Assembly: GCA_963796685.1 (NCBI GenBank)
Contig: CAWCMR010000005.1
Coordinates: forward strand, 320,001-384,000
Reading direction: 5' to 3'
Length of the DNA: 64,000 nt
Source of the DNA: an uncultured delta proteobacterium
GTDB taxonomy: Bacteria > Myxococcota_A > Polyangia > Fen-1088
The notes beneath the pieces were generated by a model that did not search any database, was not told the DNA's origin, and saw only the letters and a program-made list of their open reading frames with translations. Below, piece by piece: positions 42,083 through 59,764 of the stretch. Positions within the stretch are counted from its first letter, which is position 1, and every line of letters begins with the position of its first letter. The translations under genes were made by a program, and so were the position numbers.

Positions 42083-42211
42083 GTGAGCTTCGAAGGACTA
42101 TTCAGAAAATCGACAGGATTCGATCTAGTTGGGCACCGGGGGCGCCTAGCCGATCCGGCCCGCGGCCCGGCTGTTGTCCCTGTGGTGACTGGAGGATGCG
42201 ATGGCCGATAG
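42083..42211 (+). pseudogene. 42-codon ORF resembling a decayed Cas3 N-terminus
   Basis: GGAGG RBS and GTG start; SFEGLFRKSTGF...RLA...PAVVPVVTG parallels SFTEFFSVATRGF...RLVA...PEVLPVPTG of the intact cas3. Confidence 0.55.
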
Positions 42212-44936
42212 TTCTCCTGCCAAGAGCTTCACGGAATTCTTTAGCGTGGCCACTCGCGGCTTCTCACCATACGATTGGCAGCGCCTGGTGGCGCTCGATG
42301 GTCTGCCGGAGGTTCTGCCAGTGCCGACCGGGCTCGGGAAGACCGAGATTGCCCTCGCATGGGCTTGGCGACGGCTTGTGGCCGCTCGGCCGGAACCGCT
42401 TCACCTCGTCTACTGCCTACCGATGCGCAGCCTTGTGACGCAGACGACGCAGCGCCTTCGGGGGTACTTCGACCTTATCCGAACCCATGACGCCAGGTTA
42501 GATGTGGGCGTTCATCAGCTCATGGGCGGTGCGATCGATGAGGAGTGGGCGCGATGGCCAGAGAAGCCTTGGATCCTTGTTGGCACGCAAGACCAGCTCC
42601 TGTCCCGGGCGCTCAACCGTGGGTACGCGATGAGCCGTTTCGAGTGGCCAGTACACTTCGGGCTACTCAACAACGATTGCCGTTGGGTCATCGACGAAGT
42701 CCAGCTCATGGGACCGGGGCTCTGGACGTCCTCCCAGCTCGACTGGATGCGAAGAAAGCGGTTTCCAGCGTTGAAGCCCTGCCTCACAACCTGGATGAGC
42801 GCTACCGTCGGCACCTCCTTTCTGAGCACCACCGACCGCGCGCGCGAGGGAATTGGCGAGGCGTCACCTGCGCAGGTCGAGTTCGAGGGAAAGCTGAAGG
42901 AGTCACTCGATGCCGATCAAGGTCTCTCGTGGTGGCGTGAGGCGAGGCGGCCAGTCGAATGGACGAAGGCCAACACGGCAGATCGTCTTTCGGACGAAGT
43001 GCTCAAAGCACATGAGGCGGGGACGCTTTCGCTCATCATCTGCAACACCGTGAACATGGCTCGCGACGTATTCCGCATTTTGTCGGTGGAGCACAAGGTT
43101 CTGCTCACGTCCCGCTTCCGCCGAGGAGACCGCGTTGTGCACGAGCAGCGGCTCCTCGACTTCGATGCGACCCGAAAGGCCGGCAAGCTGCCGAAAGACC
43201 ACCCAGGCCTCATCTGCGTGAGCACCCAGGTGATCGAGGCGGGCGTGGACATCTCGGCGCATCGGCTCTGGTCCGAGCTTGCGCCGTGGCCCTCGGTGCT
43301 TCAGCGCCTCGGTCGCCTCAATCGAAAAGGAGACGATCAAGGCGCTTGTGCATGGCTCTGGGAGACGCCGAAGGAGAAGGGGCACGGCACGACCGACCGG
43401 ATCGGTCCATACGAAAGCTCGGACATCGCGCGCGCGAAGAAACTCGTCGAAGGGATGTCGCCGCTCTCGCGGGAGAAGCCATTCCCCGAGGCGGTCGCTG
43501 AGCTGGAAACGCAGGCTGCGAAGGATGTGCGCGAAGCGCTGCAACCAAAGCTGAGCCCTCTTCCACGCGCGATCGACGTCCATGGGCTGTTCTCCACCGA
43601 GCGTGACGTTCACGGTGGTTTCACCGATGTGAGCGCCTTCGTGCGTGGGACTGACCCCGATCTCGACGTGACAGTCTTCTGGCGCGACTGGTCAGGTGAC
43701 AGCCCGCCGCGCGGTGATGACCTCGACGGACTTCTGATCGATCCAGCGAGCGAGGGTTGCCCCGTGTCCTTCCCGCGTGTTCGGACGATGCTGGAGAACG
43801 GCAAGAGCAAGGCTTGGCTGTGGAACGACGAGGCCGACCGCTGGGAGCGCGCGAACCACTGGGAGATACACCCCGGCATGCTCGTCATGCTGAAACGCGA
43901 CGTGGGCGGCTACGACGCGACCGAGGGGTGGACGGGAGACATGTCGAACGTTCTCCCCGACGTGCCGCGCGCGGGGCGTGGCACGACCTTGCGAGACGAT
44001 GCCTGGACGGAGATCGGCTACTGGTCGCGACTCCAGGACCATCTCAATGACGCCCGTCGCGAGGCAGAGGCATTGTGCAAGACGCTTGGGCTGAACGGTG
44101 ACTTGCGTACAGCGGTCATCCAAGCTTCGGGGCTTCACGACCTCGGCAAGGCGCATCCCCAGTGGCAGGCCGCGTTACCCGATCGCTCTGGTATTCCCGC
44201 CGCACTACTCGCCAAGAGTCCGCGCGTGCTAGCGGTCGATGTGGTGGGCGAAGCCGCCGCAGTTCGAAGCCAAGTCCTTCGGCTTCGGCCGGTGGCGCTG
44301 TCGCTGCCCGACGAAGCGCGGAAACGCGACCGCAAAGAGGTCGTCCGACTCCGGTGGGCCATCGACGACAAGCTGGCCGAGAAGGACCTGAGCTCGCTGC
44401 GAGAGATCTCCGTCGTTCTCTGGGCAGGGCATGTGCAATTCCGCCCCGGCCTGCGCCACGAGGCGGCCTCCGCGCTCGCGATGTGGCGGAAGTACCGCGA
44501 CGGCGGCGACACGTATCCTGCCCTTGCTGTCTACCTGGCAGCGACCCACCACGGAAAGGTGCGTACGGTGCTGCGATCGACCACTGGCGAGCCCAATGAT
44601 GTGTTTGGCGTCCGTACCGAGCCCAGCTCCCTGGTGCTTGGCTCGGAGCAGTGGCCGCTCGACTTCTCGATCACCAAGGACGGGGCCGAGGGCCGCTGGG
44701 AGGGCAACGAGTTCGTGCTGACGGGGCACGGCTGGACTGGCCTAGTCGCTGATCTGCTCGGCCCCTGGCGACCGGAAGAGGCGGGCGATGCCGGCGTCGT
44801 GCCGGAGACCGAGCCGCGCCATCTTGGGCCGTTCGCTTTGGCATATCTGGAGGCACTCGTCCGTATCGCCGACTGGCGAGCGAGTGCCAACCCGAGCGCG
44901 AGTATCAAACCAAGCGAGGTGCGTCGTGGCGGCTGA
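42201..44936 (+). CDS. cas3: Type I-G Cas3 (SF2 helicase with C-terminal HD nuclease)
   Basis: PTGLGKT, DEVQ, MSAT, STQVIEAGVD, QRLGRLNR; HD motifs DHL, HDLGK, RHE, HHG and ADWRAS at the C-terminus. Confidence 0.95.
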   Translation: MADSSPAKSFTEFFSVATRGFSPYDWQRLVALDGLPEVLPVPTGLGKTEIALAWAWRRLVAARPEPLHLVYCLPMRSLVTQTTQRLRGYFDLIRTHDARLDVGVHQLMGGAIDEEWARWPEKPWILVGTQDQLLSRALNRGYAMSRFEWPVHFGLLNNDCRWVIDEVQLMGPGLWTSSQLDWMRRKRFPALKPCLTTWMSATVGTSFLSTTDRAREGIGEASPAQVEFEGKLKESLDADQGLSWWREARRPVEWTKANTADRLSDEVLKAHEAGTLSLIICNTVNMARDVFRILSVEHKVLLTSRFRRGDRVVHEQRLLDFDATRKAGKLPKDHPGLICVSTQVIEAGVDISAHRLWSELAPWPSVLQRLGRLNRKGDDQGACAWLWETPKEKGHGTTDRIGPYESSDIARAKKLVEGMSPLSREKPFPEAVAELETQAAKDVREALQPKLSPLPRAIDVHGLFSTERDVHGGFTDVSAFVRGTDPDLDVTVFWRDWSGDSPPRGDDLDGLLIDPASEGCPVSFPRVRTMLENGKSKAWLWNDEADRWERANHWEIHPGMLVMLKRDVGGYDATEGWTGDMSNVLPDVPRAGRGTTLRDDAWTEIGYWSRLQDHLNDARREAEALCKTLGLNGDLRTAVIQASGLHDLGKAHPQWQAALPDRSGIPAALLAKSPRVLAVDVVGEAAAVRSQVLRLRPVALSLPDEARKRDRKEVVRLRWAIDDKLAEKDLSSLREISVVLWAGHVQFRPGLRHEAASALAMWRKYRDGGDTYPALAVYLAATHHGKVRTVLRSTTGEPNDVFGVRTEPSSLVLGSEQWPLDFSITKDGAEGRWEGNEFVLTGHGWTGLVADLLGPWRPEEAGDAGVVPETEPRHLGPFALAYLEALVRIADWRASANPSASIKPSEVRRGG

Positions 44937-47070
44937 GCTTCGTCTTCCGGTTCTGGCACTACCCGGCCTGTCTCCCGACAGCCTCGGTAACTACCTCGCG
45001 TCCCTCGGCCTCCTACGCGTTCTCAGCCGGAAGTGGCCAAGCACGCGCATCGCATGGCGCGACGAGGTGCTGCAGGTTGTGGGCGGGCCTGCGTCGCTGG
45101 ATGAGTTGCTCGACGAGCTCGTGCGAGTCGCAGGCGAACGTACGTGGACCGAGTACGACAAAGCGTGGTCTGATGCGCAGAAGAAGGGCACGAAGGCCAA
45201 GTCAGGAGAGCCGCTGGCGCTCTGGCAGGCGCAGGCGGACGAGAACCATCTTGGGTTGTTCGCGGCGCACGTAGTGCCGCACACCCGCGCCTTCAACCCG
45301 CTTCTCGGAACTGGTGGAAATGCCGGACGGCGGGACTTCGCGGCGGGATGGAGGCAAGCGGTCGATGCTCTCGCTACGGCCCGCACGAGCAAACCGAAGA
45401 AGTCCAAAGGACGCGGGAAGAGGGCTTCGGTCTCCGATGGCGATGCAGACAACGATCCCGACGACAGGCGGAAGGAGCTGGGAGCGTTCCTCCTCGGGCA
45501 ACCGGTCACCTGGCTGCTCGAGAAGCTCGGAGCTGGTTCCTGGTTCAGCGAGGCGACGAAGCTCTATAACAGCGGCCAGTCGCCGGCTCGCGAAGGGCAG
45601 ATCTCGCCTTGGGCGATGGCAATCGCATGCGAGGGCTTGGCGCTCCTCGCCGGTGGTCCCTCCCGCCGGCTCGGTTCTCGCTCACGTATCGCCGGAGCAT
45701 TCCCCTTCGTAACTCAGCCCGCCGCATCCGAGAAGGCGGGCGAGGTGGATCGTGTGCGTGCAGAGATCTGGGCGCCGTTGTGGCAGCGACCCATGACTAT
45801 CGCCGAGACGGCGACGCTACTCCTGCGTGGTCGAGCGGAGCTGCACGGAAGAGGCGCGCTGACATCAGCCGCCTTCGCGACAGCTATTCGAAAGAGGGGC
45901 GTAGACGCTGGCGTCAGCGAGTTTCGCCGCTTCACGCTCGGCAGGACGACGAGCGCCAACACATTTGAGCCGCGGTTCGAGGCCCGCTTCCCCCTCGATG
46001 CCAATATTGATGCGGCGGGCGCGGCGACTTCAATCGCACTCGAACGCATCACCGCGCTGATCGAACAGCGCGGGTTCCCAAGAGACGGTAAGCGATTTGC
46101 TGGCCTTCGTGGCCCTATCGAGGCCGCGCTACTCGACGTCGCAGCCGAGCTTCAGCGTTCAGAGGCGGCGATCGCGTTGCTCGACGCGATCACCGGGGCA
46201 CTGGACCGCATCGACCGCAATCGCAGCTTCCGCGCGGGCAAGGTCCGCTGGGAGCCGCTGCCCCTTGAGTGGCTACCTTCGCTGTTCGCCGACGAGCGGC
46301 CCGCGGTCGAAGCGCGGCTAGCTCTGTCGGTCGTGTCGGCCTTCCCGGCCGCACAGCCCTTCGCGACGTATCGCTTCGGTGTCGAGTGGGGCTTTGGCCG
46401 CTATGAGCACACGGAGCGACCGCCCGCCCGCTGGATTTGGGGCCCCGGCCCACTTGCCCGTGTCCTTGGGACGCTTCTGTCACGAAGGCTCCTTGACGAG
46501 GCGACCGCAGAGGGGGACAGCGTCTGGGCCCAGGGCCGCGCGCCTTTGCCTGCCACGACGGCACACGTCCATCTGTGGCTCACCAACGAGATCGACGAGT
46601 CGCTATTGGCATCGTGGCTCTCACGGCTCGCGCTCTTCGACTGGCGGAAGGTACCTCAACAGATGCGCTCGCTCCTCAGTGGTCAGGCCACGGCTCCGCG
46701 AGCCGATGGCCAGCTGGCATTGCTGGGGCTCATGCAGCCCCTCGTTGATCGGCGGGCCTTGGTCGTTCGAAGTCTGTCGCCGAGCGACCTCCTCTCCGAT
46801 GCCACAGGCGCACGCACGACAGCGGCCGCGCGATCCCTCGTCACGCTGATCCGCTCGGGAGACATCGACACCGCCGTGAGGCTCGCGAGCAGCCGCTACG
46901 CGATGGCCGGCGCGCGCCTCGCATCGTTCGGCGTCCCTTGGCGTGCTCGTGACACGGACCATCTCGGCGCGGCCTTTCTCTTCACCATTCCTGACCGCGA
47001 TCGGGCGGTCCTTTTCGAACGCTGGCTTCGTCCTCGACGCCGGCAGCAAGGAGACCAAGCACATGTCTGA
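44926..47070 (+). CDS. csx17: Type I-G large subunit Cas8g (Csx17/Cas8u2)
   Basis: GLSPDSLGNYLASLGLLRVL, NPLLGTGGNAGRRDF, SPW, FPF, EIWAPLW, RGVDAGV..F.RF. Confidence 0.88.
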   Translation: MAAELRLPVLALPGLSPDSLGNYLASLGLLRVLSRKWPSTRIAWRDEVLQVVGGPASLDELLDELVRVAGERTWTEYDKAWSDAQKKGTKAKSGEPLALWQAQADENHLGLFAAHVVPHTRAFNPLLGTGGNAGRRDFAAGWRQAVDALATARTSKPKKSKGRGKRASVSDGDADNDPDDRRKELGAFLLGQPVTWLLEKLGAGSWFSEATKLYNSGQSPAREGQISPWAMAIACEGLALLAGGPSRRLGSRSRIAGAFPFVTQPAASEKAGEVDRVRAEIWAPLWQRPMTIAETATLLLRGRAELHGRGALTSAAFATAIRKRGVDAGVSEFRRFTLGRTTSANTFEPRFEARFPLDANIDAAGAATSIALERITALIEQRGFPRDGKRFAGLRGPIEAALLDVAAELQRSEAAIALLDAITGALDRIDRNRSFRAGKVRWEPLPLEWLPSLFADERPAVEARLALSVVSAFPAAQPFATYRFGVEWGFGRYEHTERPPARWIWGPGPLARVLGTLLSRRLLDEATAEGDSVWAQGRAPLPATTAHVHLWLTNEIDESLLASWLSRLALFDWRKVPQQMRSLLSGQATAPRADGQLALLGLMQPLVDRRALVVRSLSPSDLLSDATGARTTAAARSLVTLIRSGDIDTAVRLASSRYAMAGARLASFGVPWRARDTDHLGAAFLFTIPDRDRAVLFERWLRPRRRQQGDQAHV

Positions 47071-48241
47071 AACAGAGAATACTAAGCTGACCCCAAGCGA
47101 GGTTCTGAAGAGCGAGTCGCCACTCATCCTAACGGCAACTCTCGAGCCGATTGTTGGCGACCGGTTCCAACCTGCCGGATTCCCCGAGATCGGCCATGTC
47201 ATCTACAAGGCACCTCGTAAGGAAGGCACTACCGAGAACGTCTGCATCGTCGATAGCGCCGCCAGCATGGCCAACCATCTCGAGTCGGTCTGCCAGCGCG
47301 GCCCGCACGACCTCGATCTCGTCGAGGACCTCGACGGCATGCCCCACATCCGATGCGTCACGGGCGACCCGAAGGATAAGAAGCTGCCGACCGAAAGCCG
47401 CGAGGTTGTCGTCACAAGTCTCACGGAGGGCCACCGCATCGCATCCTCCTATTTCGTCGATGGGATTGTTCTGAACCAAGACGGAAAGAGGGAGGTGAGG
47501 AAGAGCAAAGAAGGCAAGGATGAGCCTCTGACACTAGAGCGTGACCTCATCGACAAACTCGGCATCGTCCTGCCCGGAAGCTCAAGAGCGCACCCCACGG
47601 CTGACAAGTGGTGGGCTGTCTTCAAGACCATCTTCGAACTCGACCCGAACTCACTCGTCCACGGCGTGCTCTTTCCGCAGTGGCAGATCAAGATCCCCCG
47701 CGCACTCACAGCGCATCTCGAGGCTTTCGGCGCCGGCCGTGTCGATCGCTCCGGCGTCAAGTTCGACAGGTTGGGAAAGACGACCTCCGGCCAGCCGATC
47801 TTCGCGATCGACGATGCCATCGCAGAGTCGATTCGTGCAACCTTCGTCCTGGACGTCAGCCTGATCCGCTCATTTGGGCGAACGAAGAAGGAAGGCGACA
47901 CGGAAACGCAGCTCGGCCTATCGAAGCCGCAGCAGGAGTTCCTCGTCGCGCTCGCCCTGTGGAAGATCCAGAAGCTCGTCGAGTCCCCGTTCCGTTTCAG
48001 GTCCGGCTGCCACTTGCGTTGCACGAGCCTCACGAGCGGCAAGCGAGAGGTCTCGATCCACCCCGACATCAAACACGCGATCAAAGCTGCTGCTTTTCGA
48101 AGCCAGGAACCCGGTGACGGTGCTCCAAAGCTCCCGATCATCACCGACGTGTTCTGGCCTCGTGACGAGCTGTATCGGGAAGGCCAGGCCGAGAGCGCCA
48201 ATACCCCAAAGAGTGACGACGATACGCCGGAAGAGGCGTGA
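47063..48241 (+). CDS. csb1: Type I-G Cas7 (Csb1)
   Basis: RFQPAGFPEIG, DSAASMANHLE, DPNSLVHGV, SGVKFD, RFRSGC. Confidence 0.88.
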   Translation: MSETENTKLTPSEVLKSESPLILTATLEPIVGDRFQPAGFPEIGHVIYKAPRKEGTTENVCIVDSAASMANHLESVCQRGPHDLDLVEDLDGMPHIRCVTGDPKDKKLPTESREVVVTSLTEGHRIASSYFVDGIVLNQDGKREVRKSKEGKDEPLTLERDLIDKLGIVLPGSSRAHPTADKWWAVFKTIFELDPNSLVHGVLFPQWQIKIPRALTAHLEAFGAGRVDRSGVKFDRLGKTTSGQPIFAIDDAIAESIRATFVLDVSLIRSFGRTKKEGDTETQLGLSKPQQEFLVALALWKIQKLVESPFRFRSGCHLRCTSLTSGKREVSIHPDIKHAIKAAAFRSQEPGDGAPKLPIITDVFWPRDELYREGQAESANTPKSDDDTPEEA

Positions 48242-50064
48242 TGCTGGTCGTTCTTCGCCAGGAATTTCCACTGGGGCGCTTTCACGCCACCCCGTGGCGT
48301 GTGAACCCATTCGACGACCCTCACGGCGAATGGCCTCCGAGCCCTTGGCGGTTGGTCCGTGCCGTCACCGCGCGCTGGTACCAGTGGACGCGCGAGGAGC
48401 AATCCGCCCCGGACATCGCCGAGCTTGAGCGCTTGCAGGCCGCGCTGTGCGCGAGCACGTATGCTTTTCAGCTTCCCACAGACGCGCGGAAAGGCAGCCC
48501 ACTCAGGCAGTACCATCCGACCGAGTTCAAGATGGATCCGCCGAACTGGAGGCACGTCGCCCGCTTTCAACGCGCCGTAGGGAGCACGGCGGGCAGCAAC
48601 GAAGCCGCGACCTCGAAGGACAAGAAGGCCAGGTCAAAGGCCGCTCGGAGCAAGCAAGCGACGCCGGAGGAGAAAGCCAACGAAGAGGCCAGGAAGAAGA
48701 TCAAGGACCTCAAGGGCGTGAAGCTCGTCGAGGAGAAGCACGATGGTCGTCTGGAATGGGAGGTAACGGTCAAAGACAAGGACGCAGACGAGAGCAAGAA
48801 GAGAGTCCAGGAGATCCTCGGTGTTCCGATGGGTTCTTGGCAGAGAGTGGCAGATGCCGGATCTCGCGGTTATGGGACGAGTCTTGTCCAGGACAACTAC
48901 TGGTGCGTCCCTCCAGAAGAGCCGGTATGGTGGTTCATCGAAGGTGACTCGTGGACGCCCCAACTCGTCACGGCGCTTGAGCAGTGCCTCTCACGCATGA
49001 CCTACTTCGGAAGGGCCGAGACGCTCACGCGCATTCGCTGCGCGGGTCCACAGGATCCAATCCCTGTACGCAACTGTCGGCTCATCGAAAGACGCGCATC
49101 TGCCGCCGTCCCGGTCCTGACGCCGCTCCAAGGCGCCACGCGGGCCGACATCGAGCGCATCACGGACGATCCGGAATCCGAGAAGCGTGCGGTGCCGCCG
49201 GGTGCGATTTTCCTCTACGCGGTTCGGCCGCCTCGCCCTGCTGCTCGTGAGCGCCGACGAACACCTACTCCTCGGCTCGACTGCCATCTGATGCAGTTTG
49301 CATTGGGCTGGAACGTCGCCCCCGATCCTCGCGCGATAGTACGGCTGACCTCGCGGTTTCGGGGGGCAATCCTTCGCGAGCTTCTGCACCTCAAGACGGG
49401 AGATTCATCGGCGACGTGGACGCGCGTCGGTCGCGAGGTGCGTGCGTCGATCACGGACATGGCCGGCAAGGACGCGGACAACGCCCCACTCAAGGGACAC
49501 CGCCACACGGAGTTCTTCGCTTGGTGCGAGGACGGGCACCCAACGCGTATCGTTGTTTGGAGGGGGGCACGCGTCTTCGATGCTGACGAGCAAGACGCCA
49601 TCCTGACAGCAGCGTCCCGCGACGTGTCCTGGGCAGCTGCAGGCTCAGACGCGTACGAGTGGAAGGTGCGCCTCATCCCTCTGGATCGAGATGTTCCTGC
49701 GCCGCCTGGATTCGATGCTCAGCCTTCGATCAGTTGGGAGTCGGTCACGCCCTACGTGCCCCTCCGGCACCATCTTCGTGGCGGCAAGGAGAGGACGGGC
49801 GAGTCGATCGCCGCTCAAATTCGCCGGGAGCTCATACAACGCGGCTTCGCGGACGGCGATCGAGTGGGGGTCCAATGCGAGGAATCCCCGATTTGGGTGT
49901 CGGTCCATGTTCCACGTCGAGAAGCAGACAAACGAGCATTCATCGGCGGTCGCCGTGGCCAGTCATCAGTCCGACTACATTTCCCGGCGCCCGTCGTTGG
50001 CCCCATCAGACTGGGCCACTCTAGTGCCTACGGGCTAGGCCTGTTTCGCCCAACGAAGCTGTGA
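48241..50064 (+). CDS. csb2: Type I-G Csb2 (Cas5/Cas6 fusion)
   Basis: GRFHATPW, EWPPSPWRL, YFGRAE, WESVTPY, GPIRLGHSSAYGLGLF (Cas6 G-loop). Confidence 0.9.
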   Translation: MLVVLRQEFPLGRFHATPWRVNPFDDPHGEWPPSPWRLVRAVTARWYQWTREEQSAPDIAELERLQAALCASTYAFQLPTDARKGSPLRQYHPTEFKMDPPNWRHVARFQRAVGSTAGSNEAATSKDKKARSKAARSKQATPEEKANEEARKKIKDLKGVKLVEEKHDGRLEWEVTVKDKDADESKKRVQEILGVPMGSWQRVADAGSRGYGTSLVQDNYWCVPPEEPVWWFIEGDSWTPQLVTALEQCLSRMTYFGRAETLTRIRCAGPQDPIPVRNCRLIERRASAAVPVLTPLQGATRADIERITDDPESEKRAVPPGAIFLYAVRPPRPAARERRRTPTPRLDCHLMQFALGWNVAPDPRAIVRLTSRFRGAILRELLHLKTGDSSATWTRVGREVRASITDMAGKDADNAPLKGHRHTEFFAWCEDGHPTRIVVWRGARVFDADEQDAILTAASRDVSWAAAGSDAYEWKVRLIPLDRDVPAPPGFDAQPSISWESVTPYVPLRHHLRGGKERTGESIAAQIRRELIQRGFADGDRVGVQCEESPIWVSVHVPRREADKRAFIGGRRGQSSVRLHFPAPVVGPIRLGHSSAYGLGLFRPTKL

Positions 50065-50395
50065 GTAGTCGGCACTGGCGACAAGATATTTCTGAGGTCC
50101 AGCCGCCGCAGCACGGCCACGACGCAATCGTCGGCGTACAAGCGAAGGGCCAACGCGCGCTCCTTACTTCCTTTGCTCCACCAGCTGGCTTGGATATCGC
50201 TTCTGCAATTCCGCGACTAGACTTTCGGCATTCGCCCAGTCGCTACAGATTAGGTCGTGATGGTCGTAGTAGTACGCCAGCGCCGCATGCACCTCGGCCA
50301 ACCCGAGGCGCGGATTGGCCTCCCCAATCTCGTCCGGGGTCACACCCCGGTGCTCGTAGTCGGAGGCGATCAGGCTGACCTTGATATCGGTCCGA

Positions 50396-50545
50396 TCAGA
50401 GGTGCGTCTTCGCTTTGAGGGACGCGAGCAGTGCGGGCATGGCGGCCCGATCCTTCTCTCGAGCCGAAGCTTTCTTGCTCGCGATCACTCGCCCGAGGGG
50501 AGGGAGCTTCACCGTGAAGTCGTCGATTGGGTAGTCGATCACCGA
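50396..50545 (-). pseudogene. C-terminal remnant of a nucleotidyltransferase-type toxin
   Basis: VKLPPLGRVIASKKASAREKDRAAMPAL resembles the I.SK.A..R.KD C-terminus of such NTases; the N-terminal catalytic part is absent. Confidence 0.5.
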
Positions 50546-50853
50546 CAGCGAGCGAGGCACCTCGACAGCCTTTCCATGGGAGTGAGGGTGAGGTTGTAGA
50601 GGGCGTGCTCGATGTCTCCAACGTCGAGCTGGCACCCCGACGAGAGCCGCTTCGCCACCCTGCGCCGATAGAGCCGGTCGGATTTCAACTTTTCGAGCCT
50701 GTATTCGGTTCCCCACCTCGCCCTCGCCCCTTGGCGAGCGATCTCGCTCCGCTTTTCGGAGGTCAGCGAGGCAGCGCGAGCCAAGGTCCTGGTTTTGGCT
50801 CAGCATCACCCGCCCTTCGAGCGGCGGCGAGCATATCGCCCACTTTCACCCAA
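50539..50853 (-). pseudogene. Disrupted small antitoxin-like gene (GG.ARA..LT.E.RSEIAR..A.ARW motif)
   Basis: RSKGG and LARAASLTSEKRSEIARQGARARW are separated in frame by 24 nt containing two stops; C-terminal NLTLTPMERL. Confidence 0.5.
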
Positions 50854-50939
50854 TCATCACGCGGCGACAGAACCGCGCGATGTCAGCGTGCGGGATCTGG
50901 ACGACCGTGGAATTGAGCCTTCGGGCATCGCCCTTCAGG

Positions 50940-51113
50940 GGCACCCCTTTTGCGGTGAGCCGGTCGACCATGCGGAAAACTGTAGCATTGCCACCCGCTG
51001 TCCCGCCATCAAAGCGCCAGCTCCCCCGCTCCGCCCCGACGAGCACGCGGAACGGGGCGAGGAATGCGTCCTGGTCCGTGCGCATCCGCCGAGGCTGGCC
51101 AGGGCGACTTCAC
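50940..51113 (-). pseudogene. Degenerate vapC fragment
   Basis: 51040-51098 matches 53214-53272 of the intact vapC at 54/59 nt; LTAKGVP versus LTAKGRP. Confidence 0.75.
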
Positions 51114-51180
51114 GACACGGATTCTCAACCTCCCGTCTCGGATGCTGAACGCACCCCGTTGCGGTATAGTCCTACCGTCG

Positions 51181-51642
51181 ATGAGCAAGCGTCCAACATT
51201 TCGCCGCGCGCCGGATGAGCTCAAACCCGGGGTCGTCGGAGCATGGCCGACGGACAGGCCGGATCCTGCCTCCGTGGCGACGCAGGTGCACTACCGAGCC
51301 AGCGGCGAGCACAAGGACTACCCGTCATCGACAGGAAGTTGGACGCTCGGCCCGGTCAGGGCCGACAAGGCCAAGTGCCAGCGGTTCGCCGAAGCGGACT
51401 GGCCACTCGTGCAGGACGCGCTTCGCCAGGCCATTTGCTGTCGTTGCGTAAGTCGCGACTTCCGCGGCAACTTCCCCTCTCGGGTCTGGGCCTTTGTCAA
51501 CGGTGTGTTGCACGAGGCGAGGTTGACCAACGAAGCAGCCGGCGAGTACCACGGCTTTCCCCTCCAGTATGAGGACCAGCAGCCCAAGGATCCGAATAGG
51601 ATCCTAAGGAACGCACCCCATGTCACGATCCCTGTCGATTAA
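51181..51642 (+). CDS. Uncharacterised 153-aa protein, candidate nuclease toxin
   Basis: Y...GEHK, FPSRVW, EARLTN...GEYHGFP; TATAGT -10-like box just upstream; overlaps the next gene. Confidence 0.65.
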   Translation: MSKRPTFRRAPDELKPGVVGAWPTDRPDPASVATQVHYRASGEHKDYPSSTGSWTLGPVRADKAKCQRFAEADWPLVQDALRQAICCRCVSRDFRGNFPSRVWAFVNGVLHEARLTNEAAGEYHGFPLQYEDQQPKDPNRILRNAPHVTIPVD

Positions 51643-52960
51643 GTGGGACCCGCTCGATCAGCCGTCGGCAACCGATCCGGTCGAGCGAAAGACGTGGGCC
51701 GCCTTGAGTATCCAAGTGGACGGTCGGTTTGCCAGCAGGCTGTGGGACCGTCAAGCCGCCGCCGAACGCCAGAACCTTTATGTCCCGGCTTTTCCGATTG
51801 CCCAGTGGCTCATCGCCAACTGGTGGCAACTGCTCTTCGAGCCGGGCATCGCCGAGGATGTTCCACCCGCCGGCACCACTGCGCCCGCACACCGGGACTG
51901 GCTGGAACGGCATTGCCTTCGCGCGGCCGACGCCGGCTTGCTGCTGCCCAGGTTGTGCCTATTTAGCAGCGGTCGTGGCGTCTGCGCACAATGGACCGCC
52001 GACGAGCCCGATGCCTACCCACAAATGCCGGGCATCTTTGTAAGTAGCGATGGGATGAATCTCGATGCGGCCGAGGCCGAGCGCGGTTTGCGGGAATTCG
52101 TTACCGAAGTGCTCTCGCGGGTCGCGGATATGCCGGACCCGCGGGTTGTGCACGTTCGGGCGAACTGGGAAGCCATCTCGCGCGCGAACCCCGATGAACG
52201 ATCCTTCTGTCAAGCGGCCGGCAGGATGGGTCTGGACCCTTATGCATCGGAGCACTGGCCGCCAGGCTTGGTCGATTTCCTCGAAACCGGTCTTGGGGAC
52301 GATCAGGATACGCCGTTGGTGCAAGACTTTCTCGAGGCCGCCAGCGCCGAAACGGCCGTGGCCGAGTGGCAGTGGACGGCGCGTGTCGAGAAGAGCCTCT
52401 CACTCCGCGCGACACCCACGGACGTGTCGAGAAGGTTGGGCCGCCCGGACCTGTACCGTCCAGCGAAGACCGGATGCGCGACAGCTCGCAGCGTACGCGA
52501 GAAAATCGACCTCGCCCCGGTCGAGGCTGTCGAAAATCTGACCGACGTGTCCCGTGCCTTGATGCTCGGAGCTCTTGAGTTTCAAGAGGTCAATCACCTG
52601 CCAAGCCGGCGCGTGCAGGCGGTCGTGGGTTGGAAATCCGATCATACTCCGGTGGTGGCCGGCCCCATCCCGAGTAGAGATGCAAATCGACGCTTTCTAG
52701 AGGCCCGCGCTTTGTACCACGCGATATTCGCCTGCGATCGCGGCCCACGGCTTGCTACGAACGCCCACACGTGGGATCAGCAGGCATCGCGCGCCTTCGC
52801 TGCCGAATTGCTGGCACCGCAGGCGGTCCTTGTCGATGAGACAACCCACTATTCGGGAGACCGAGACTCCCTTGTCAGGACGCTGGCGAGCCGCTATCGA
52901 GTAAGCACCCAGGTCATTGGCTACCAACTCGAAAACGCCGGTGTCGGCGGCATGGACTGA
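51620..52960 (+). CDS. 446-aa protein with unknown N-terminal domain and degenerate ImmA/IrrE (M78)-like C-terminus
   Basis: RRFLEARALYH in place of RFTLAHELGH; QQASRAFAAELLAP; LASRYRVSTQV. Confidence 0.72.
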   Translation: MSRSLSIKWDPLDQPSATDPVERKTWAALSIQVDGRFASRLWDRQAAAERQNLYVPAFPIAQWLIANWWQLLFEPGIAEDVPPAGTTAPAHRDWLERHCLRAADAGLLLPRLCLFSSGRGVCAQWTADEPDAYPQMPGIFVSSDGMNLDAAEAERGLREFVTEVLSRVADMPDPRVVHVRANWEAISRANPDERSFCQAAGRMGLDPYASEHWPPGLVDFLETGLGDDQDTPLVQDFLEAASAETAVAEWQWTARVEKSLSLRATPTDVSRRLGRPDLYRPAKTGCATARSVREKIDLAPVEAVENLTDVSRALMLGALEFQEVNHLPSRRVQAVVGWKSDHTPVVAGPIPSRDANRRFLEARALYHAIFACDRGPRLATNAHTWDQQASRAFAAELLAPQAVLVDETTHYSGDRDSLVRTLASRYRVSTQVIGYQLENAGVGGMD

Positions 52961-53022
52961 GCGCTCGGTGGCTGCCTCGCCGCCCCATCGCCAAGGCTCG
53001 GTGTGTCTAGAAGGCACGTGTC

Positions 53023-53421
53023 TCACCCCATCCAGTCCTCCACCTTCAACCCGGGCACGCGGGCGAATTCGCCGACGTTGCTGGTGACCACGATCCGGCG
53101 GCTCGCCTGCGCGATCGCCGCGATCATCAGGTCGCGATCCCCGATGGGACGGCCTTTCGCGGTCAGGTGGGCGCGGATGCTGGCGTAGCAGTCCGCGGCG
53201 GCCGCGTCGAAATCGAGCACGCGGAACGGGGCAAGAAATGCGTCCTGGTCCGTGCGCGTCCGTCTAGGCTGGTGGCTCTTGGCGGCACCGAACCACATCT
53301 CGGCCAAGGTGATGGCAGCAACCGCAATGGCCGAGGGGCCGACCTCGCGCGCGCGCGCCGTCAGAGGTTCGTGCAACTTCATCAGATGGATGCAGGCGTT
53401 CGTGTCGAACAGGTAGCTCAC
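53023..53421 (-). CDS. vapC: VapC PIN toxin
   Basis: [44 protein letters not shown]. Confidence 0.93.
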
Positions 53422-53666
53422 GGCGAATCCAGATCGACATCCTGCAGCTGGACATTCATCGGCTCGATCTTCGCGGCATGGCGCATCTCGCGCAGGCGCT
53501 CCCAGTATCCGCGCGGCCACGCCTTGCCGTGCAGCGGCTCCAGGACAACCGCATCACCCTCGCGACGGATGCGAACCTCGTCGCCGGAAAATCGGTATTC
53601 CTTCGGCAGGCGGACCGCCTGCGACCTTCCGTTGCGGAATAGTTTTGCCGTAGCTGTCGATGCCAT
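53418..53666 (-). CDS. vapB: VapB (AbrB/MazE-type) antitoxin
   Basis: [20 protein letters not shown]. Confidence 0.93.
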
Positions 53667-53783
53667 GGTTCTTCCTCTAGCGGTAGATACCAGTATATAC
53701 CATGTTCCCTCGACCTAGCGCAACCTCACCCAAGCCCCACGACCTGCGTTACAATGCCGTTCACCTAGTCGAAAGGATCCTCC

Positions 53784-54941
53784 ATGCTGACCCTGCCCGC
53801 GCTCAAGATTCAGCAGTTTGCCAAGGAATTCTACCTTCTCAACCTTTCTGCCGGCGATGTGGAACGCCTGGTGCGCTTCGAGGTGCTGGGCGAGGCGGGG
53901 GCCGCGGGCGTCGAGGGCAAGAAGGCGCGCAAGCCGAAGGCCAGCGGCGTGAACTGGGGCGAGCTCGAGAAGAAGGTCGGCACCAGCGACAAGGCGTTCC
54001 AGCGGCCCATCATCCGCAAAAAGATCGACGAGCTGGCGCAGTACTATACGAGCTGCCGCGAGAGCGATGCCCTGCCCGCCATCCCCGGCTCGGTCATCCT
54101 GACCACCGACGAGAAGGTGTCGTTCACGGCCGCGGGCGCGAATCCTTTCCTGGGGTTGCTCCAGATCTCCGAGGAGGAGGGCACCTTGCGCGCGCTCGAC
54201 GGCCAGCACCGCCTGCTGGCCCTGGCCGCGCTGCTGCACGATCCGGCCACCAGCGATGAGGATCGTGCGGCGGCGCGCCGGCTGCAGGTGCCGGCCATTC
54301 TGTTCAGCGGCCTCAGCGACGACCAAACCGTCGAGATGTTCGTCACCATCAACGCCAAGCACACGCGCCTCAACGCCTCCCTGCTGGTCAGCCTCAGCGG
54401 GCGCCAGCTTTACGGCGACGCGCGCATGGGCAAGGTCCACGACGCCATCCGTGCGCTCAACAACCAGGCGTCGAGCCCGCTGGCGGGCCAGATCAAGTTG
54501 CTCGGCGTTGGCCCGGGGCGCGTGCAACAGGCGGGGCTGGCGCAAGAGATGAAACAGATGTTCGACGATTGGGAGCGCAAGGATCCGGCGCTGGTCGCTC
54601 GGTTCGAGGTCGAGGCCAAGGAGTTCTTCCTGGCCTACTTCAAGGAGATCGCGCGTGTGTTCGCCCAGGCCTGGGACGGCAAGAAGTATTCGATCAAGAG
54701 CACGATGGCCCTGCGGGCCTTCATCCAGGTGACGCCGGAGGTTCTCGGCCGCGCCCTCACGGCAGGGGGAGCCTCGCGCGCCGATGCCTTGCGGACCGTG
54801 CTCGCCCCCTGGGCCGAGCGCGTGGGCAGCCCGCGCTTCGAGACCGCCGGCGCCTGGCGAGCCAAGGTCGCGGGCGGCGGCAAGGAAACCACGCGCCTGC
54901 TCGCGCGTGAGCTGGTGGCCGCGCTGGGAGGTGCCGCGTGA
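53784..54941 (+). CDS. DGQHR-domain (DndB/ParB-like) protein
   Basis: FQRP, LDGQHRLLAL, EMFVTINAK...LN.SL. Confidence 0.88.
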   Translation: MLTLPALKIQQFAKEFYLLNLSAGDVERLVRFEVLGEAGAAGVEGKKARKPKASGVNWGELEKKVGTSDKAFQRPIIRKKIDELAQYYTSCRESDALPAIPGSVILTTDEKVSFTAAGANPFLGLLQISEEEGTLRALDGQHRLLALAALLHDPATSDEDRAAARRLQVPAILFSGLSDDQTVEMFVTINAKHTRLNASLLVSLSGRQLYGDARMGKVHDAIRALNNQASSPLAGQIKLLGVGPGRVQQAGLAQEMKQMFDDWERKDPALVARFEVEAKEFFLAYFKEIARVFAQAWDGKKYSIKSTMALRAFIQVTPEVLGRALTAGGASRADALRTVLAPWAERVGSPRFETAGAWRAKVAGGGKETTRLLARELVAALGGAA

Positions 54942-55414
54942 GCCCCCAAGCCAGCCTCGAGGTCGAGCTGCAGAGCATCGTGCGCGAGAATGAAGGCGAC
55001 TTGCTGGCCTTCGCGCGCAAGATCTACGAGCACGGCTACCGCCAGGGTCTCGCGTCGCGCACGCAGGGCCAGCCCGAGAACGTCGTTTCCGTTCCCGAGC
55101 CAACTGCGCCTCAGCCTGTTGCCGAGCAGGGACCGCTGTTTCCGACGCGCTCGAGGGTCGCGGTTGCATCCGCCCCAGACGAAGAAGTCGGAGAGCCCGA
55201 CGAAGGCGACGCCCCGATCGAAGAGGAGGCCTACACCTGCGACCACCGCGTGCGCGGCAGCATCACCGCGGCCGGCTTGCAAAGGAAGATCGAACGCCTC
55301 TTCGATCTCTCCCGTTTCGCCATCGACATCGTCATCTGCCGGCGTGGCGATGCCGAACGCCGACGTCTCAAGAGCACGGTGAAGCTGAAGAACTATCTGC
55401 TGGAAGGCGAGTAG
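54938..55414 (+). CDS. Hypothetical protein coupled to the DGQHR gene
   Basis: GTGA overlap; helical N-terminus, acidic/Pro linker, compact basic C-terminal domain. Confidence 0.7.
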   Translation: MSPQASLEVELQSIVRENEGDLLAFARKIYEHGYRQGLASRTQGQPENVVSVPEPTAPQPVAEQGPLFPTRSRVAVASAPDEEVGEPDEGDAPIEEEAYTCDHRVRGSITAAGLQRKIERLFDLSRFAIDIVICRRGDAERRRLKSTVKLKNYLLEGE

Positions 55415-55438
55415 GCTTGGCCCGGGAGCGGCACGACC

Positions 55439-55834
55439 TCACCCGCCCGCGTCCATCATCTCGACGAGCTGACGCGGGGAAAGAATGCGGATCCCTCGGT
55501 ACTCGCCCAAGACGAGCAAGTCCGCGTCGCCGGTCAGGATGACGTCGGCTTGCCCCGCGATGGCGGCTGCCAGGACCTTGCCGTCGTCGCGATCGCGGCA
55601 AACCGGTAGAGCCTTGGGCCGCACCAGCGTCGCCCGCTCGCGATAGGCTTTCAGGAGTGGCACGTCGGCCGGGTCGGTGTCGAATTTGCGGCGCAGGGTT
55701 CGCGCCAACTCTTCCAGCAAAGCGGGCGACGTGATGAGAGCCACTCGCATCAGCCTGCGCTTGACCAGGTCGCGGCACAAGCCGTCGGCGACCATACCGG
55801 CGACCAGAACGTTGGTGTCGCAGACAACCTTCAC
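55439..55834 (-). CDS. PIN-family putative toxin
   Basis: VVCDTNVLVA, EL..TL, CRDRDD.KVL.AA, ILTGDADLL, ILSP. Confidence 0.9.
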   Translation of the reverse strand: MKVVCDTNVLVAGMVADGLCRDLVKRRLMRVALITSPALLEELARTLRRKFDTDPADVPLLKAYRERATLVRPKALPVCRDRDDGKVLAAAIAGQADVILTGDADLLVLGEYRGIRILSPRQLVEMMDAGG

Positions 55835-56049
55835 GACACGGCTTTGAACGCGTCTTCGTCGGTATAGATACCCTTGGCGCGCGCCTTGGGAATAAGCAGG
55901 CGGCGGGACTTGTCGAAGGCATCGGCCCAGATTTGCTGTTGCACGGCCCGGCGGACGAATTCGCTCTCCGTCATACCCTGTCCTTTGGCGGCTCGACTCA
56001 ACTCGCGCCGCAGCAGGGGAGGAAGGCTGATGGTCACCGTCGCTCTCAT
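55831..56049 (-). CDS. RHH/CopG antitoxin
   Basis: VTISLP...SEFVRRAV...ARAKGIYTDED; GTGA overlap. Confidence 0.85.
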   Translation of the reverse strand: MRATVTISLPPLLRRELSRAAKGQGMTESEFVRRAVQQQIWADAFDKSRRLLIPKARAKGIYTDEDAFKAVS

Positions 56050-56114
56050 GTAAGACAATTTATGACAGGCAAGGCTCCCTTTCAAGAAGTTGCTACGCAC
56101 GTGCATTCTCCGAT

Positions 56115-56237
56115 CCCCTCGCCCCGCGCAGCGGGGAGAGGGTTAGGGTGAGGGGCCAGCGCACTCTCTCGCATGGCCGAACCCCTCACCCGACGCGCTT
56201 CGCGCGTCGACCTCTCCCCGCTGCGCGGGGCGAGGTG
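56115..56237. repeat. Inverted pair of REP-like elements (BIME-like)
   Basis: CCCCTCGCCCCGCGCAGCGGGGAGAGGGTTAGGGTGAGGGG followed by an inverted copy of the 34656 element. Confidence 0.8.
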
Positions 56238-56311
56238 AATCTTCCAAGCACTCGCAAGCTCTCGATTCTGCACGGCATTCAACCCGTTCGGTGCTCTAGC
56301 GCGGCGCCCCC

Positions 56312-57634
56312 CTACCCCGCCGCCCCCGCTGCCGCCAACAGCGCGCTGACGGCGTAGTCGTAGTCGAGCTGGGTGCCGTCCCACAACGGTTCGTTCGAGT
56401 CCGGGCCGAGGTCGAGCCCGCGGTCGACGGCCCATTCCGCCAGCCAAGCGTGGGCGTCGTCGACGTGCTCGCGTGGTGGCTCTGCCGGCAAAGGCTTGCC
56501 GGTTGGCGAGGTGAACAGCAATTCGCCCGCGGCAGAACGCGTGACGGACCAGCCGCCCTCGTGGATCAGATGGTGGTGGGCGGTACACAGGGTCACCAGG
56601 TTGTCCACGCTGGTTTCGCCACCGTGCAACCAGTGCCGAATGTGATGGCCGTGCAGGAAGCGGGTGTGGGTGCAACCAGGAAAGCGGCAGCCGCGGTCGC
56701 GGAGCGCGAGCACACGACGAATGGCGGGCGGAATGGTGCGGGTGCGGCGACCGATGTTCAATGGCGGGGTGTCCGATTGTGCGCCGCTGGCGCCGACGGC
56801 GAGCAGGCCACAGTCGCAAGCCACCCTGCGCAGGGTTTCCGGCGAGATTCGCGTGCCGTCGTCGAGCGTGCCGGCCATGGAGCCGTCCGGCCCGAGAGCG
56901 TCCTGATCCAGGTGCACCACGACCTGGAAGCGTTCGCCTCCGGTTCCCGTCCCTCGATTGCCGGCAAGGAAGGACTCGGCGAGAGCGACCATGCCGTCTG
57001 CGCGCGATGGCCAAGACGCTCCCGCGGAAGCGTCTGCGTGTCTGCCATCACACTTTCGCGCTTCCGCGGAAGCGGCGTCTGGGGCAGAAGCCTCATTTCC
57101 ACCATGAACCTCTCGCGCCCGCTCGACTGCGCGCATAACCAGATCCGTCTCGTCGGGTGACAGGACGATCTCGAGCTTCACCATTCCGCCCGGCAGCTCC
57201 CGCTGGCGGACGGAACGCTCCTCGGGCGATGGGGAATCGTCGGAAGCTTGGGCGGTTCGGTACCCGCGACACAAGCGTTCGAGCTGCGCGCCGGTTGCGA
57301 ACAAGGCCACCTCCAGTAGGCGCGCTTCATTGTCGGGCGTGGCGGCGCGGGTCAGGGCCCGCACCTTGGCATAGGACACCTTGCCCGACCGCAACGCCTC
57401 ATCGATGGCGGGCAACTTGCCGAGCGCGCGCGCCACGCGCACTTTCTCGCGCGCGGTGGTCGAATCCAAGCCCACCCGCCAAGCGAGCCAGTGCGCACAG
57501 GACACGGCGCCCTGTTCGTACCACCCACCGGCTTCGTCGAACTGCCGGATGCACTCGAGCAACCTGTGCGTGGCCGCATCGACGTGCGCCGACAAGCTCG
57601 CTATCTCCTGACCCAATTCCTCGACGGAAGACAT
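56312..57634 (-). CDS. DUF222 / HNH endonuclease (13E12-repeat-like family)
   Basis: SCAHWL, RRVACD, GRRTR, RDRGCRFPGC, HHIRHW..GG.T..DNL..LC..HH...H. Confidence 0.9.
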   Translation of the reverse strand: MSSVEELGQEIASLSAHVDAATHRLLECIRQFDEAGGWYEQGAVSCAHWLAWRVGLDSTTAREKVRVARALGKLPAIDEALRSGKVSYAKVRALTRAATPDNEARLLEVALFATGAQLERLCRGYRTAQASDDSPSPEERSVRQRELPGGMVKLEIVLSPDETDLVMRAVERAREVHGGNEASAPDAASAEARKCDGRHADASAGASWPSRADGMVALAESFLAGNRGTGTGGERFQVVVHLDQDALGPDGSMAGTLDDGTRISPETLRRVACDCGLLAVGASGAQSDTPPLNIGRRTRTIPPAIRRVLALRDRGCRFPGCTHTRFLHGHHIRHWLHGGETSVDNLVTLCTAHHHLIHEGGWSVTRSAAGELLFTSPTGKPLPAEPPREHVDDAHAWLAEWAVDRGLDLGPDSNEPLWDGTQLDYDYAVSALLAAAGAAG

Positions 57635-57641
57635 GGGCGAA

Positions 57642-57658
57642 CTATACAAATGTTCAGT
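57642..57658. promoter_or_regulatory. LexA-box-like site overlapping a TATAGT -10 of the DUF222-HNH gene
   Basis: CTATACAAATGTTCAGT matches 14/17 positions of the Myxococcus LexA consensus CTRHAMRYBYGTTCAGS (consensus recalled from memory). Confidence 0.45.
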
Positions 57659-57723
57659 TACACGATCAAGTCACAATTCAACTGAATTCAATTGAGACCG
57701 ATTGCCGATTCATTGTCCTTGCC

Positions 57724-57749
57724 TGACAAACGGCCCCCGTATCCTGGTG
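57724..57749 (+). promoter_or_regulatory. Putative cas-operon promoter/operator motif, copy 2
   Basis: TGACAAA-N7-CGTA-N3-TGGTG just upstream of the AAGGAGG RBS of cas4/1. Confidence 0.6.
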
Positions 57750-57765
57750 GCAAGGAGGTATCTCC

Positions 57766-59469
<1,704 letters not shown>

Positions 59470-59473
59470 TATC

Positions 59474-59764
59474 ATGCGGAATGTGTACCTGGTGTGTTAC
59501 GACGTGTGCAACGACAAGAGGCTGAAGCGGGTCTACAAGGCCATGCGCGGGTACGGCGACCATCTGCAGCTCTCGGTGTTCCGCTGCGAGCTTTCCGCGC
59601 GCGAGCGCGCCGAAATGATCGCCGAGCTTTCGCCCCTCATCGCCCACGACGAGGACCAGGTGCTCATTATCGACATCGGCCCGGCAGACGGGCGCGCAAG
59701 CCTGGTCTTCGATGCCGTTGGCAAGCCGTACGTGGCACCAGAGCGCCACGCCATCATCGTGTGA
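59474..59764 (+). CDS. cas2: CRISPR-associated Cas2
   Basis: YLVCYDV, KRLKRV, YGDHLQLSVF.C.L, DQV. Confidence 0.95.
   Translation: MRNVYLVCYDVCNDKRLKRVYKAMRGYGDHLQLSVFRCELSARERAEMIAELSPLIAHDEDQVLIIDIGPADGRASLVFDAVGKPYVAPERHAIIV

Follow-up and report, generated by a model that had tools for sequence, protein, structure and literature searches.

ORF1 and ORF2 are two overlapping open reading frames (ORFs) in the window, the 64,000-nucleotide stretch of contig CAWCMR010000005.1 (positions 320,001 to 384,000) of an uncultured delta proteobacterium that was analysed here. ORF1 (51181-51642, plus strand) encodes a protein of 153 amino acids (aa) with an isoelectric point (pI) of 8.8, which belongs to an un-named family and is the candidate effector or toxin of the pair. 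ORF2 (51620-52960, plus strand) encodes a 446 aa protein with a pI of 5.3 and is the candidate for the role of antitoxin or sensor. Part of the window is taken up by a type I-G CRISPR-Cas locus; as the initial annotation of this region stated, the two genes are co-oriented and lie between csb2 and cas4g/cas1g. With roughly even confidence, the pair is regarded here as a self-contained and horizontally mobile toxin-antitoxin (TA) type module whose antitoxin carries an IrrE/ImmA (M78) domain.

The stop of ORF1 and the start of ORF2 overlap by 23 nucleotides (nt; 51620-51642, plus strand), and the two genes are probably translationally coupled. The overlap is conserved, measuring 23 nt in 27 of 53 scorable related loci and 29 nt in a further 6. 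The start of ORF1 is placed at the ATG at 51181 and not at the upstream ATG at 51064, in agreement with the starts of its homologues, which read M-x-[KR]-R-P. The hexamer TATAGT (51165-51170, plus strand), which had been taken for a -10-like box belonging to the pair, is indeed found 10 nt before the ORF1 ATG and is at best a putative element. A consensus scan of positions 49900-53800 called no sigma-70 promoter-like site (0 found; shuffles mean 0.7), so that a promoter of the pair's own is at most putative.

The three parts of ORF2

The AlphaFold2 (AF2) model of ORF2 has a predicted local distance difference test score (pLDDT) of 92.2 and a predicted template modelling score (pTM) of 0.90, and it comprises three parts. 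Residues 1-150 (51620-52069, plus strand) form two beta-beta-beta-beta-alpha units that provide the main predicted docking surface for ORF1, with W26, W63, N67, W68, W69, E74, R97, H98, P110 and F140 conserved. Foldseek relates this part to PUR/MRP/Whirly-type folds and a CdiI immunity protein at a sub-significant level (E 0.14-0.5). Residues 151-275 (52070-52444, plus strand) make up a helical middle region that contributes the second part of the predicted interface and in which W183, E193, C197, G204, D206, P207, D236 and W252 are conserved. The ESM Atlas holds no usable match for residues 1-275. The third part, residues ~276-446 (52445-52957, plus strand), has an M78/IrrE fold in the model, from which the catalytic residues have been lost.

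The assignment of the C-terminal part agrees with the IrrE/ImmA-like region reported earlier and is drawn from the predicted structure, which on this evidence has the M78 fold. Foldseek searches of the PDB matched it to CapP (7t5t, E 3.6e-4) and IrrE (3dti, E 6.3e-3), each with a probability of 1.00, and to further IrrE/PprI entries (3dte, probability 1.00; 8sln, 0.99; 8slm, 0.98), the alignment to CapP and IrrE/PprI spanning ~175 columns. The corresponding Pfam family, PF06114, is detected in 22 of 27 ORF2 relatives at E <= 1 (best 6.2e-6), and in the ORF2 of the window it scores 18.5 bits, which is under the curated cut-off of 22. NCBIfam gave no match for ORF2, and the best hit of an ORF2 profile among PDB sequences was an unrelated protein at E 0.089.

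The catalytic positions were read from a hidden Markov model (HMM) alignment of 70 full-length members of the ORF2 family. The position of the HExxH motif of active M78 peptidases is occupied by R363-A-L-Y-H367 (52706-52720, plus strand), where residue 363 is Arg in 68 of the 70 members and His in none, residue 364 is A, G or S in 68 and Glu in none, and residue 367 is His in 30. The third M78 zinc ligand, which we take to be the Glu before the F-A-x-E-L-L-x-P helix, is likewise absent, as this position is Gln387 in 70/70. The assumed ligand agrees with E245 of VapB52, as described for that protein (PMC13273310). By contrast, the helix itself has been kept. The stretch Q387-P400 (Q-Q-A-S-R-A-F-A-A-E-L-L-A-P; 52778-52819, plus strand) is the most conserved part of ORF2, with Q387, R391, F393, A394, A395, E396 and P400 each found in all 70 members and A392-F-A-A-E-L-L-A-P400 retained. 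The RALYH and AFAAELLAP motifs of the initial annotation are thus both in place, as is the motif loss for which it called the partner degenerate; the loss is shared by the whole family and is not a local degeneration. Since the HExxH position reads R-x-x-x-[H/other] in 68/70 and the third ligand is Gln throughout, the whole ORF2 family is, judged by its alignment, an old pseudo-peptidase, and its former active-site region is apparently under strong constraint.

A cysteine, C372 (52733-52735), lies five residues past H367 and is found in 22 of 27 close relatives and in 19/70 of the wider family. It is near the position of the 'cysteine switch' of CapP and VapB52 and, by analogy, may be a remnant of that switch.

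ORF1 is a small basic protein without a named family

ORF1 has an Arg/Lys-rich N-terminus and contains the motifs H44-K45, F98-P99-S-R-V-W103, E112-A-R-L-T-N117 and Y123-H-G-F-P127. These are the HK, FP..VW, EARL.N and YHGFP motifs that had been noted before, except that N117 and Y123 are separated by five residues and not by the three given earlier. In an alignment of 101 diverse relatives the best conserved positions are C66 (99%), H44 and P99 (98% each), Y38 (93%), W103 (92%), Y123 (91%), G121 (89%), K45 and A113 (88% each), followed by E112 (78%) and R114 (70%). Position 124 is His in 50% (51/101) and Lys in 41% (41/101) of the sequences, and H111 is not conserved, being Tyr or Phe in relatives. 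As a set, the conserved residues look enzymatic. A zinc site made up of H44, C66, H111 and H124 was considered as well and dropped, as two of these residues, H111 and H124, vary in the wide family.

The AF2 model of ORF1 (pLDDT 89.7) consists of short helices at residues 29-35, 71-86 and 141-144 and a three-stranded sheet at 101-127. ORF1 matched no PADLOC model; its only NCBIfam match was a chance-level one to MftE (E 0.032), and in the ESM Atlas it fell only into un-named clusters without Pfam families. None of 148 wider ORF1 relatives contains a relevant Pfam family. Fusions of ORF1 to ORF2 or to large toxins were not seen, which the tool itself grades as weak evidence, and the two longer forms of ORF1, of 283 and 274 aa, are probably over-called starts.

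The earlier suggestion that ORF1 is possibly an RNase is not supported. In its most concrete form, ORF1 would be a ribonuclease toxin of the barnase/T1 type, a reading that we judge decidedly improbable. It draws on a match of residues 88-144 to the ribonuclease family PF00545 (E 0.019), which three of 32 close relatives also show at E <= 1 (best E 0.015), on the helix-then-sheet order of the ORF1 core and on a few RelE, CDI-toxin and RegB entries among the Foldseek matches (E 0.9-3.9). However, the match scores 15.9 bits under a cut-off of 24, and in the wider set of 148 relatives PF00545 is detected in none at E <= 0.01. The 50 Foldseek ranks listed for ORF1 include no structure of barnase, RNase Sa or RNase T1 in spite of the good quality of the model, and H111 and H124 vary across the family. 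For the sub-cut-off score, the result in the wider relatives and the missing barnase-like fold match, ORF1 is not filed here as an RNase.

Linkage and distribution of the pair

At E <= 1e-3, database searches retrieved 70 relatives of ORF1 (best 8.6e-83) and 260 of ORF2 (best 5e-221), and an ORF1 profile retrieved 522 cluster representatives among 1.84 billion. In Aquisphaera giovannonii the homologues of ORF1 and ORF2 occupy consecutive locus tags. A survey anchored on ORF2, with one genome per species, yielded 79 loci with an ORF2 relative (identified below by L numbers), and in 71 of them the ORF1 HMM detected a co-oriented homologue of ORF1 immediately upstream. Four of the eight misses (L024, L031, L039 and L052) are loci in which only a C-terminal portion of ORF2 is present on the contig, and three of these four begin at a contig end. 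Of the other misses, L037 is a frameshifted copy, L076 gives a partial match, and L008 and L065 have no detectable ORF1.

The majority of the 79 loci belong to Planctomycetota, with at least eight phyla represented in all, the others including Acidobacteriota, Myxococcota, Pseudomonadota, Cyanobacteria, Verrucomicrobiota, Nitrospirota and Actinomycetota. Alpha- and betaproteobacterial plasmids, three of them conjugative, carry five distant relatives of ORF2 (23-26% identity). In both plasmid copies examined, from Tistrella and Agrobacterium, an ORF1 homologue lies directly upstream (wide HMM E 3e-23 and 4e-19) and the pair shares about 25% identity with that of the window. The co-occurrence of the two genes, put forward at the outset as something to be checked in related neighbourhoods, therefore extends to these two distant copies. 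The distance matrices of ORF1 and ORF2 correlate with r 0.873 over 58 pairs, a value reached by 0/999 permutations, which shows inheritance as a unit and nothing more.

All predicted genes within ~5 kilobases (kb) of the pair were clustered. Only ORF1 and ORF2 recur, 485 of the 516 neighbour clusters are singletons, and there is no third recurrent partner gene within this distance. Pfam annotation of the two nearest predicted genes on each side in 76 loci (263 of 264 genes, a 3067-aa ORF at L049 being omitted) returned mostly unrelated housekeeping genes. The pair is thus tightly linked, patchily spread and set in variable context, as is generally looked for in type II TA modules.

Some loci depart from the common arrangement. 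In a gammaproteobacterial genome (L078) the pair is present twice within 13 kb, once on each strand (9522-11374, plus; 709-2381, minus). At L065 (9890-12872) the ORF2 homologue is followed by a 519-aa ORF2-like paralogue. ORF1 and ORF2 are both fragmented at L048, as is ORF2 in the ORF1-less L037, which may reflect decay of the copies or faults of assembly. The distant copy on Agrobacterium plasmid pAt2 (L081, 1434-8626) lies ~1 kb from repC, flanked by two genes annotated as restriction endonucleases and with a site-specific integrase adjoining.

A predicted complex of ORF1 and ORF2

Structure prediction of the two proteins together gave a complex with an interaction prediction score from aligned errors (ipSAE) of 0.87 (runs 0.87, 0.86 and 0.87), while the best control scored 0.00. 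Of 157 solved complexes 116 attain this ipSAE mark, as do 2 of 215 mismatched pairs; these counts hold only roughly for a complex that was built from custom alignments. Contacts agreed between the runs by at least 94% and the pLDDT of the partners was at least 86. Binding of ORF1 by ORF2 is supported by this model.

The predicted interface involves residues 12-137 and 178-229 of ORF2, and takes in its conserved positions around W63, R97/H98, W183-C197 and D206/P207. No interface residue lies above position 229, so that the pseudo-peptidase domain is left free. The initial annotation had ORF1 held by a pseudo-protease; the holding partner is predicted as proposed, and the contact is made by ORF2 12-229, the pseudo-peptidase domain taking no part in it. 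Among the residues contributed by ORF1 are the basic tail (1-17), residues 41-46, 54-67, 112, 116-117 and 124, and the segment 126-136, and the conserved patch of the protein is covered. The two families differ consistently in charge. The ORF1 family has a median pI of 9.0 (53 of 58 members above 7.5) and the ORF2 family one of 5.2 (all 58 below 6.5), the most acidic part of ORF2 being residues 1-275, the part predicted to bind ORF1.

These features bear on the polarity of the pair. It is conceivable that the roles are reversed, such that ORF2 would be the effector through its N-terminal and middle regions and the small ORF1 its antitoxin or inhibitor. An antitoxin-first arrangement with a small upstream gene is described as the commonest type II order (PMC10440598), COG2856 proteins were, in the account of PMC2701414, initially predicted to be toxins, and these two regions of ORF2 contain the conserved residues E74, R97, H98, E193, C197, D206 and D236. 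This reversal is nevertheless improbable. Conservation is higher in ORF1 (mean distance 0.60) than in ORF2 (0.67), and ORF1 is basic where ORF2 is acidic, which corresponds to the usual polarity of toxin and antitoxin. Moreover, the conserved residues of the N-terminal and middle regions of ORF2 fall in the predicted interface and line no free pocket, the M78 site is dead, and L065 has an ORF2 homologue without an ORF1.

A proposed toxin-antitoxin-type module with a non-catalytic sensor domain

The anatomy is that of a TA-type module. The two genes are linked, ORF2 has an M78 fold with a dead active site, the predicted complex buries the ORF1 patch, and the partners are complementary in charge. 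In such a module ORF1 would be a small basic effector with enzyme-like conserved residues (H44, K45, C66, E112, R114, Y123 and H/K124), whose target is probably a nucleic acid. It would be made together with ORF2 and held inactive by it, the acidic region 12-229 of ORF2 being predicted to wrap the basic tail of ORF1 and to mask its conserved patch. With both catalytic positions, His and Glu, and the third zinc ligand substituted across the family, the M78-fold domain of ORF2 should be unable to cut, and its former active-site helix is exposed in the complex model. The exposed pseudo-active site may thus serve as a binding or sensing module and, by analogy with CapP, PprI and VapB52, could bind single-stranded DNA (ssDNA) or a peptide. 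Occupancy of this site would then loosen the hold on ORF1 without proteolysis. Any particular target or trigger is proposed with much less confidence than the TA-type nature of the pair. The full scenario, in which the pair would represent a new TA or abortive-infection family with a toxin of unseen fold, caged by a three-part antitoxin whose IrrE/CapP-type domain has become an allosteric sensor of ssDNA or a phage product and releases the toxin without cleavage, is unlikely to be correct in all its parts.

Several results weigh against a TA-type module. The score of the complex is a confidence of the model and no measurement. The fold of ORF1 corresponds to no known toxin or nuclease: Foldseek returned nothing at E <= 1e-3 (best 0.73 in the PDB and 0.063 in BFVD), profile searches against PDB sequences gave only unrelated proteins (best E 0.54 with the close alignment and 1.2 with the wide one of 86 sequences), and the PF00545 match is the sub-cut-off one described above. 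ORF2, with 446 aa and a well folded model, is unlike a labile antitoxin, and neither it nor its 27 relatives contain a helix-turn-helix (HTH), ribbon-helix-helix (RHH) or AbrB family at E <= 1 that could serve in autoregulation. No homologue of ORF2 turned up in 50,697 phage records and PHROGs has no match for either protein. A defence, TA or mobile-type neighbour is found in only 17 of the 76 loci, a count based on Pfam names and without a background rate. Finally, at L026, L030, L032 and L041 ORF2 is split into at least two fragments, whereas ORF1 is unbroken. These loci could be decayed copies or assembly errors; if the splits are real, they make strong toxicity of ORF1 less likely, provided that the N-terminal fragment is not by itself enough for neutralisation. 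In three of the loci (L026, L032 and L041) the predicted ORF1-binding region corresponds roughly to the N-terminal piece.

The same split loci, like the size and stable fold of ORF2 and the prevalence of housekeeping neighbours, would also fit a pair that is regulatory and not toxic. In this case ORF1 would be a small regulator that binds nucleic acid, and ORF2 a sensor scaffold that keeps it sequestered until a signal such as DNA damage frees it, as in IrrE/DdrO, CapP/CapH and ImmA/ImmR but with the partner left uncleaved. We see this as a minority possibility. The closest structures to ORF2 are the regulators CapP and IrrE/PprI, both of which are described as stimulated by ssDNA (10.64898/2026.05.16.725639, PMC10904395), and the Arg/Lys-rich tail of ORF1 would suit a nucleic-acid-binding protein. 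On the other hand, ORF1 lacks an HTH, with a single sub-threshold HTH_31 match among its 148 relatives, and its model offers only three short helices and a three-stranded sheet. There is no conserved downstream gene beside the pair that could form its regulon, and the near-invariant His, Lys, Cys, Glu and Tyr of ORF1 look catalytic. The patchy spread across phyla and plasmids in variable context also fits a selfish or defence module better.

Comparison with described M78-containing systems

As a TA-type module, the pair is best read as an undescribed variant of the modules with a Zn-peptidase antitoxin, such as RosmerTA and VapBC52. RosmerTA, the nearest of the named systems, is defined by a Zn-peptidase antitoxin together with a toxin whose function is unknown (10.1101/2022.05.11.491447). 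Like the pair, it is a two-gene operon composed of a small partner without a family and a protein with an ImmA/IrrE (M78) domain. It further resembles the pair, as does the ImmA/D25 zone of the NetFlax toxin-antitoxin network, in a distribution that is scattered and mobile, and toxin-first order is common in that zone. In the NetFlax ImmA node the toxin comes first in 58% of cases (PMC10440598). No named system was matched by the pair, as the initial annotation had supposed; in PADLOC, which has no model for ORF1, ORF2 gave a weak match to RmrA of RosmerTA (E 5e-4, 17.4 bits). The differences from RosmerTA are several. RmrA is described as a Zn-peptidase, whereas the ORF2 family is without the HExxH motif and the third zinc ligand, and an HTH is often present in RmrA but was not detected in ORF2. 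ORF2 further contains ~275 additional residues, the region to which ORF1 is predicted to bind, and it is always found with the same ORF1 family, whereas RmrA occurs with varied toxins. In the part of the NetFlax table that was consulted, only a D29:D44 pair is listed for Aquisphaera giovannonii and not its copy of ORF1-ORF2.

VapB52 of M. tuberculosis is reported to bind a PIN toxin through its N-terminal domain and to carry a separate IrrE-type peptidase domain, which is activated by ssDNA and then cuts off the toxin-binding domain (PMC13273310). VapBC52 offers a parallel for a multidomain antitoxin with N-terminal toxin binding and a separate CapP/IrrE-like domain as sensor, and mutation of the zinc motif is described as leaving toxin binding in place (PMC13273310). 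By analogy, the division of labour in ORF2 may be the same as in VapB52, proteolysis excepted. VapB52 differs in its intact, zinc-binding HExxH motif, its HTH, its PIN toxin and its ssDNA-triggered self-cleavage. ORF2 should be incapable of self-cleavage by that chemistry, ORF1 is not a PIN protein and no HTH was found.

The CapP/CapH, IrrE(PprI)/DdrO and ImmA/ImmR systems share the fold of the ORF2 C-terminus and are described as two-gene modules that sense ssDNA. Their peptidases are active zinc enzymes that cleave an XRE-type repressor and possess HTH and GAF-like domains, whereas ORF2 lacks the catalytic residues and ends after the M78 domain, and ORF1 is no XRE repressor. The COG2856-Xre modules (Makarova et al. 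2009) resemble the pair in their mobility and in an operon that joins a toxin gene to a COG2856 (M78) domain (PMC2701414). Their class is defined in that account by HExxH and by an Xre HTH that is fused or adjacent, both of which are absent from the pair (PMC2701414), and none of the searches made identified ORF1 as a PIN or RelE protein. Among the papers listed by the literature searches, judged by title and abstract, none was seen to describe this family or another M78 antitoxin that is catalytically dead.

M78/IrrE-type domains act as switches in the regulation of defence (CapP), in the radiation response (IrrE) and in TA modules (RosmerTA, VapBC52). To our knowledge, every described switch of this type works by proteolysis. 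A widespread family that has lost catalysis and in which the former active-site helix is the best conserved part would reveal other uses of the domain, such as binding or sensing, and the ORF1 family would enlarge the toxin repertoire by a small effector with a new fold. The confident models of ORF1, ORF2 and their complex make these hypotheses directly testable.

The setting in the type I-G CRISPR-Cas locus

The type I-G locus of the window encodes Cas3g (42201-44936), Cas8g1/Csx17 (ORF 44788-47070), Csb1/Cas7g (46943-48241) and Csb2 (48238-50064), and resumes with Cas4g/Cas1g (57766-59469) and Cas2 (59387-59764). The CRISPR array starts at 60006 and runs to the end of the window (64000), with 55 repeats that have a 36-nt constant part and a spacing of 70-76 nt; its beginning lies ~240 nt past the cas2 ORF. 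The gap between csb2 and cas4g/cas1g (50064-57766) consists of 7.7 kb of unrelated genes, among them the ORF1-ORF2 pair. The other genes in the gap are a vapBC pair (53023-53666, minus strand) with an intact vapC (53023-53520, minus strand), a DGQHR/DpdB-like protein (53784-54941, plus strand), an RHH-like ORF (55831-56106, minus strand) and a DUF222-HNH protein (56312-57649, minus strand).

The cassette is flanked by a 59-nt direct repeat with copies that are 92% identical. The left copy (51040-51098) is part of a decayed vapC-like remnant just 5' of ORF1 (~50898-51110, minus strand; tblastn with the VapC of the window, E 5e-11), and the right copy (53214-53272) lies within the intact vapC. 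This suggests a vapC sequence as the site at which the cassette entered, by recombination or by insertion. Given the repeat and the vapBC, DGQHR, RHH-like and DUF222-HNH genes, the content of the gap reads as accumulated mobile cargo.

That the pair is co-oriented with the cas genes and placed between csb2 and cas4g/cas1g could be taken to mean that it is an accessory module which works with the type I-G system or guards it, and the initial annotation saw in it a system that backs up CRISPR. This is so improbable that we give it almost no weight. Cas genes are among the four nearest predicted genes in 0/76 related loci, the gap is shared with vapBC, the DGQHR protein and the HNH protein, and the vapC-derived repeat points to insertion as mobile cargo. 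The place of the pair in the cas locus appears to be due to an insertion event that it shares with other mobile cargo and not to a functional tie. The finding accordingly does not point to a new cas accessory gene; it would make the csb2-cas4/1 gap of this type I-G system a collector of mobile TA and defence cargo.

Three further ORFs adjoin the cas genes. Two candidate genes follow csb2, one directly (50061-50378, plus strand) and one at 50396-50809 (minus strand), neither with a match in Pfam, NCBIfam, PADLOC or PHROGs. A 555-aa ORF (40419-42086) is located immediately 5' of cas3g and is without a match in Pfam, NCBIfam or PADLOC.

Neighbours at related loci

The defence, TA and mobile-type neighbours counted above are of diverse kinds. 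Restriction and modification functions are represented by a type I restriction-modification system (L001), Mrr (L063) and DNA methylases (L021, L032 and L062). Further loci have NB-ARC/TPR (L008), TIR (L051), AAA_15/AAA_21 (L065), EVE (L064) or DprA/SLOG (L071) neighbours. PemK is found at L030, a nucleotidyltransferase at each of L014 and L067, and DUF433 together with DUF4365 at L020. An integrase or transposases are among the nearest genes at L066, L073 and L079.

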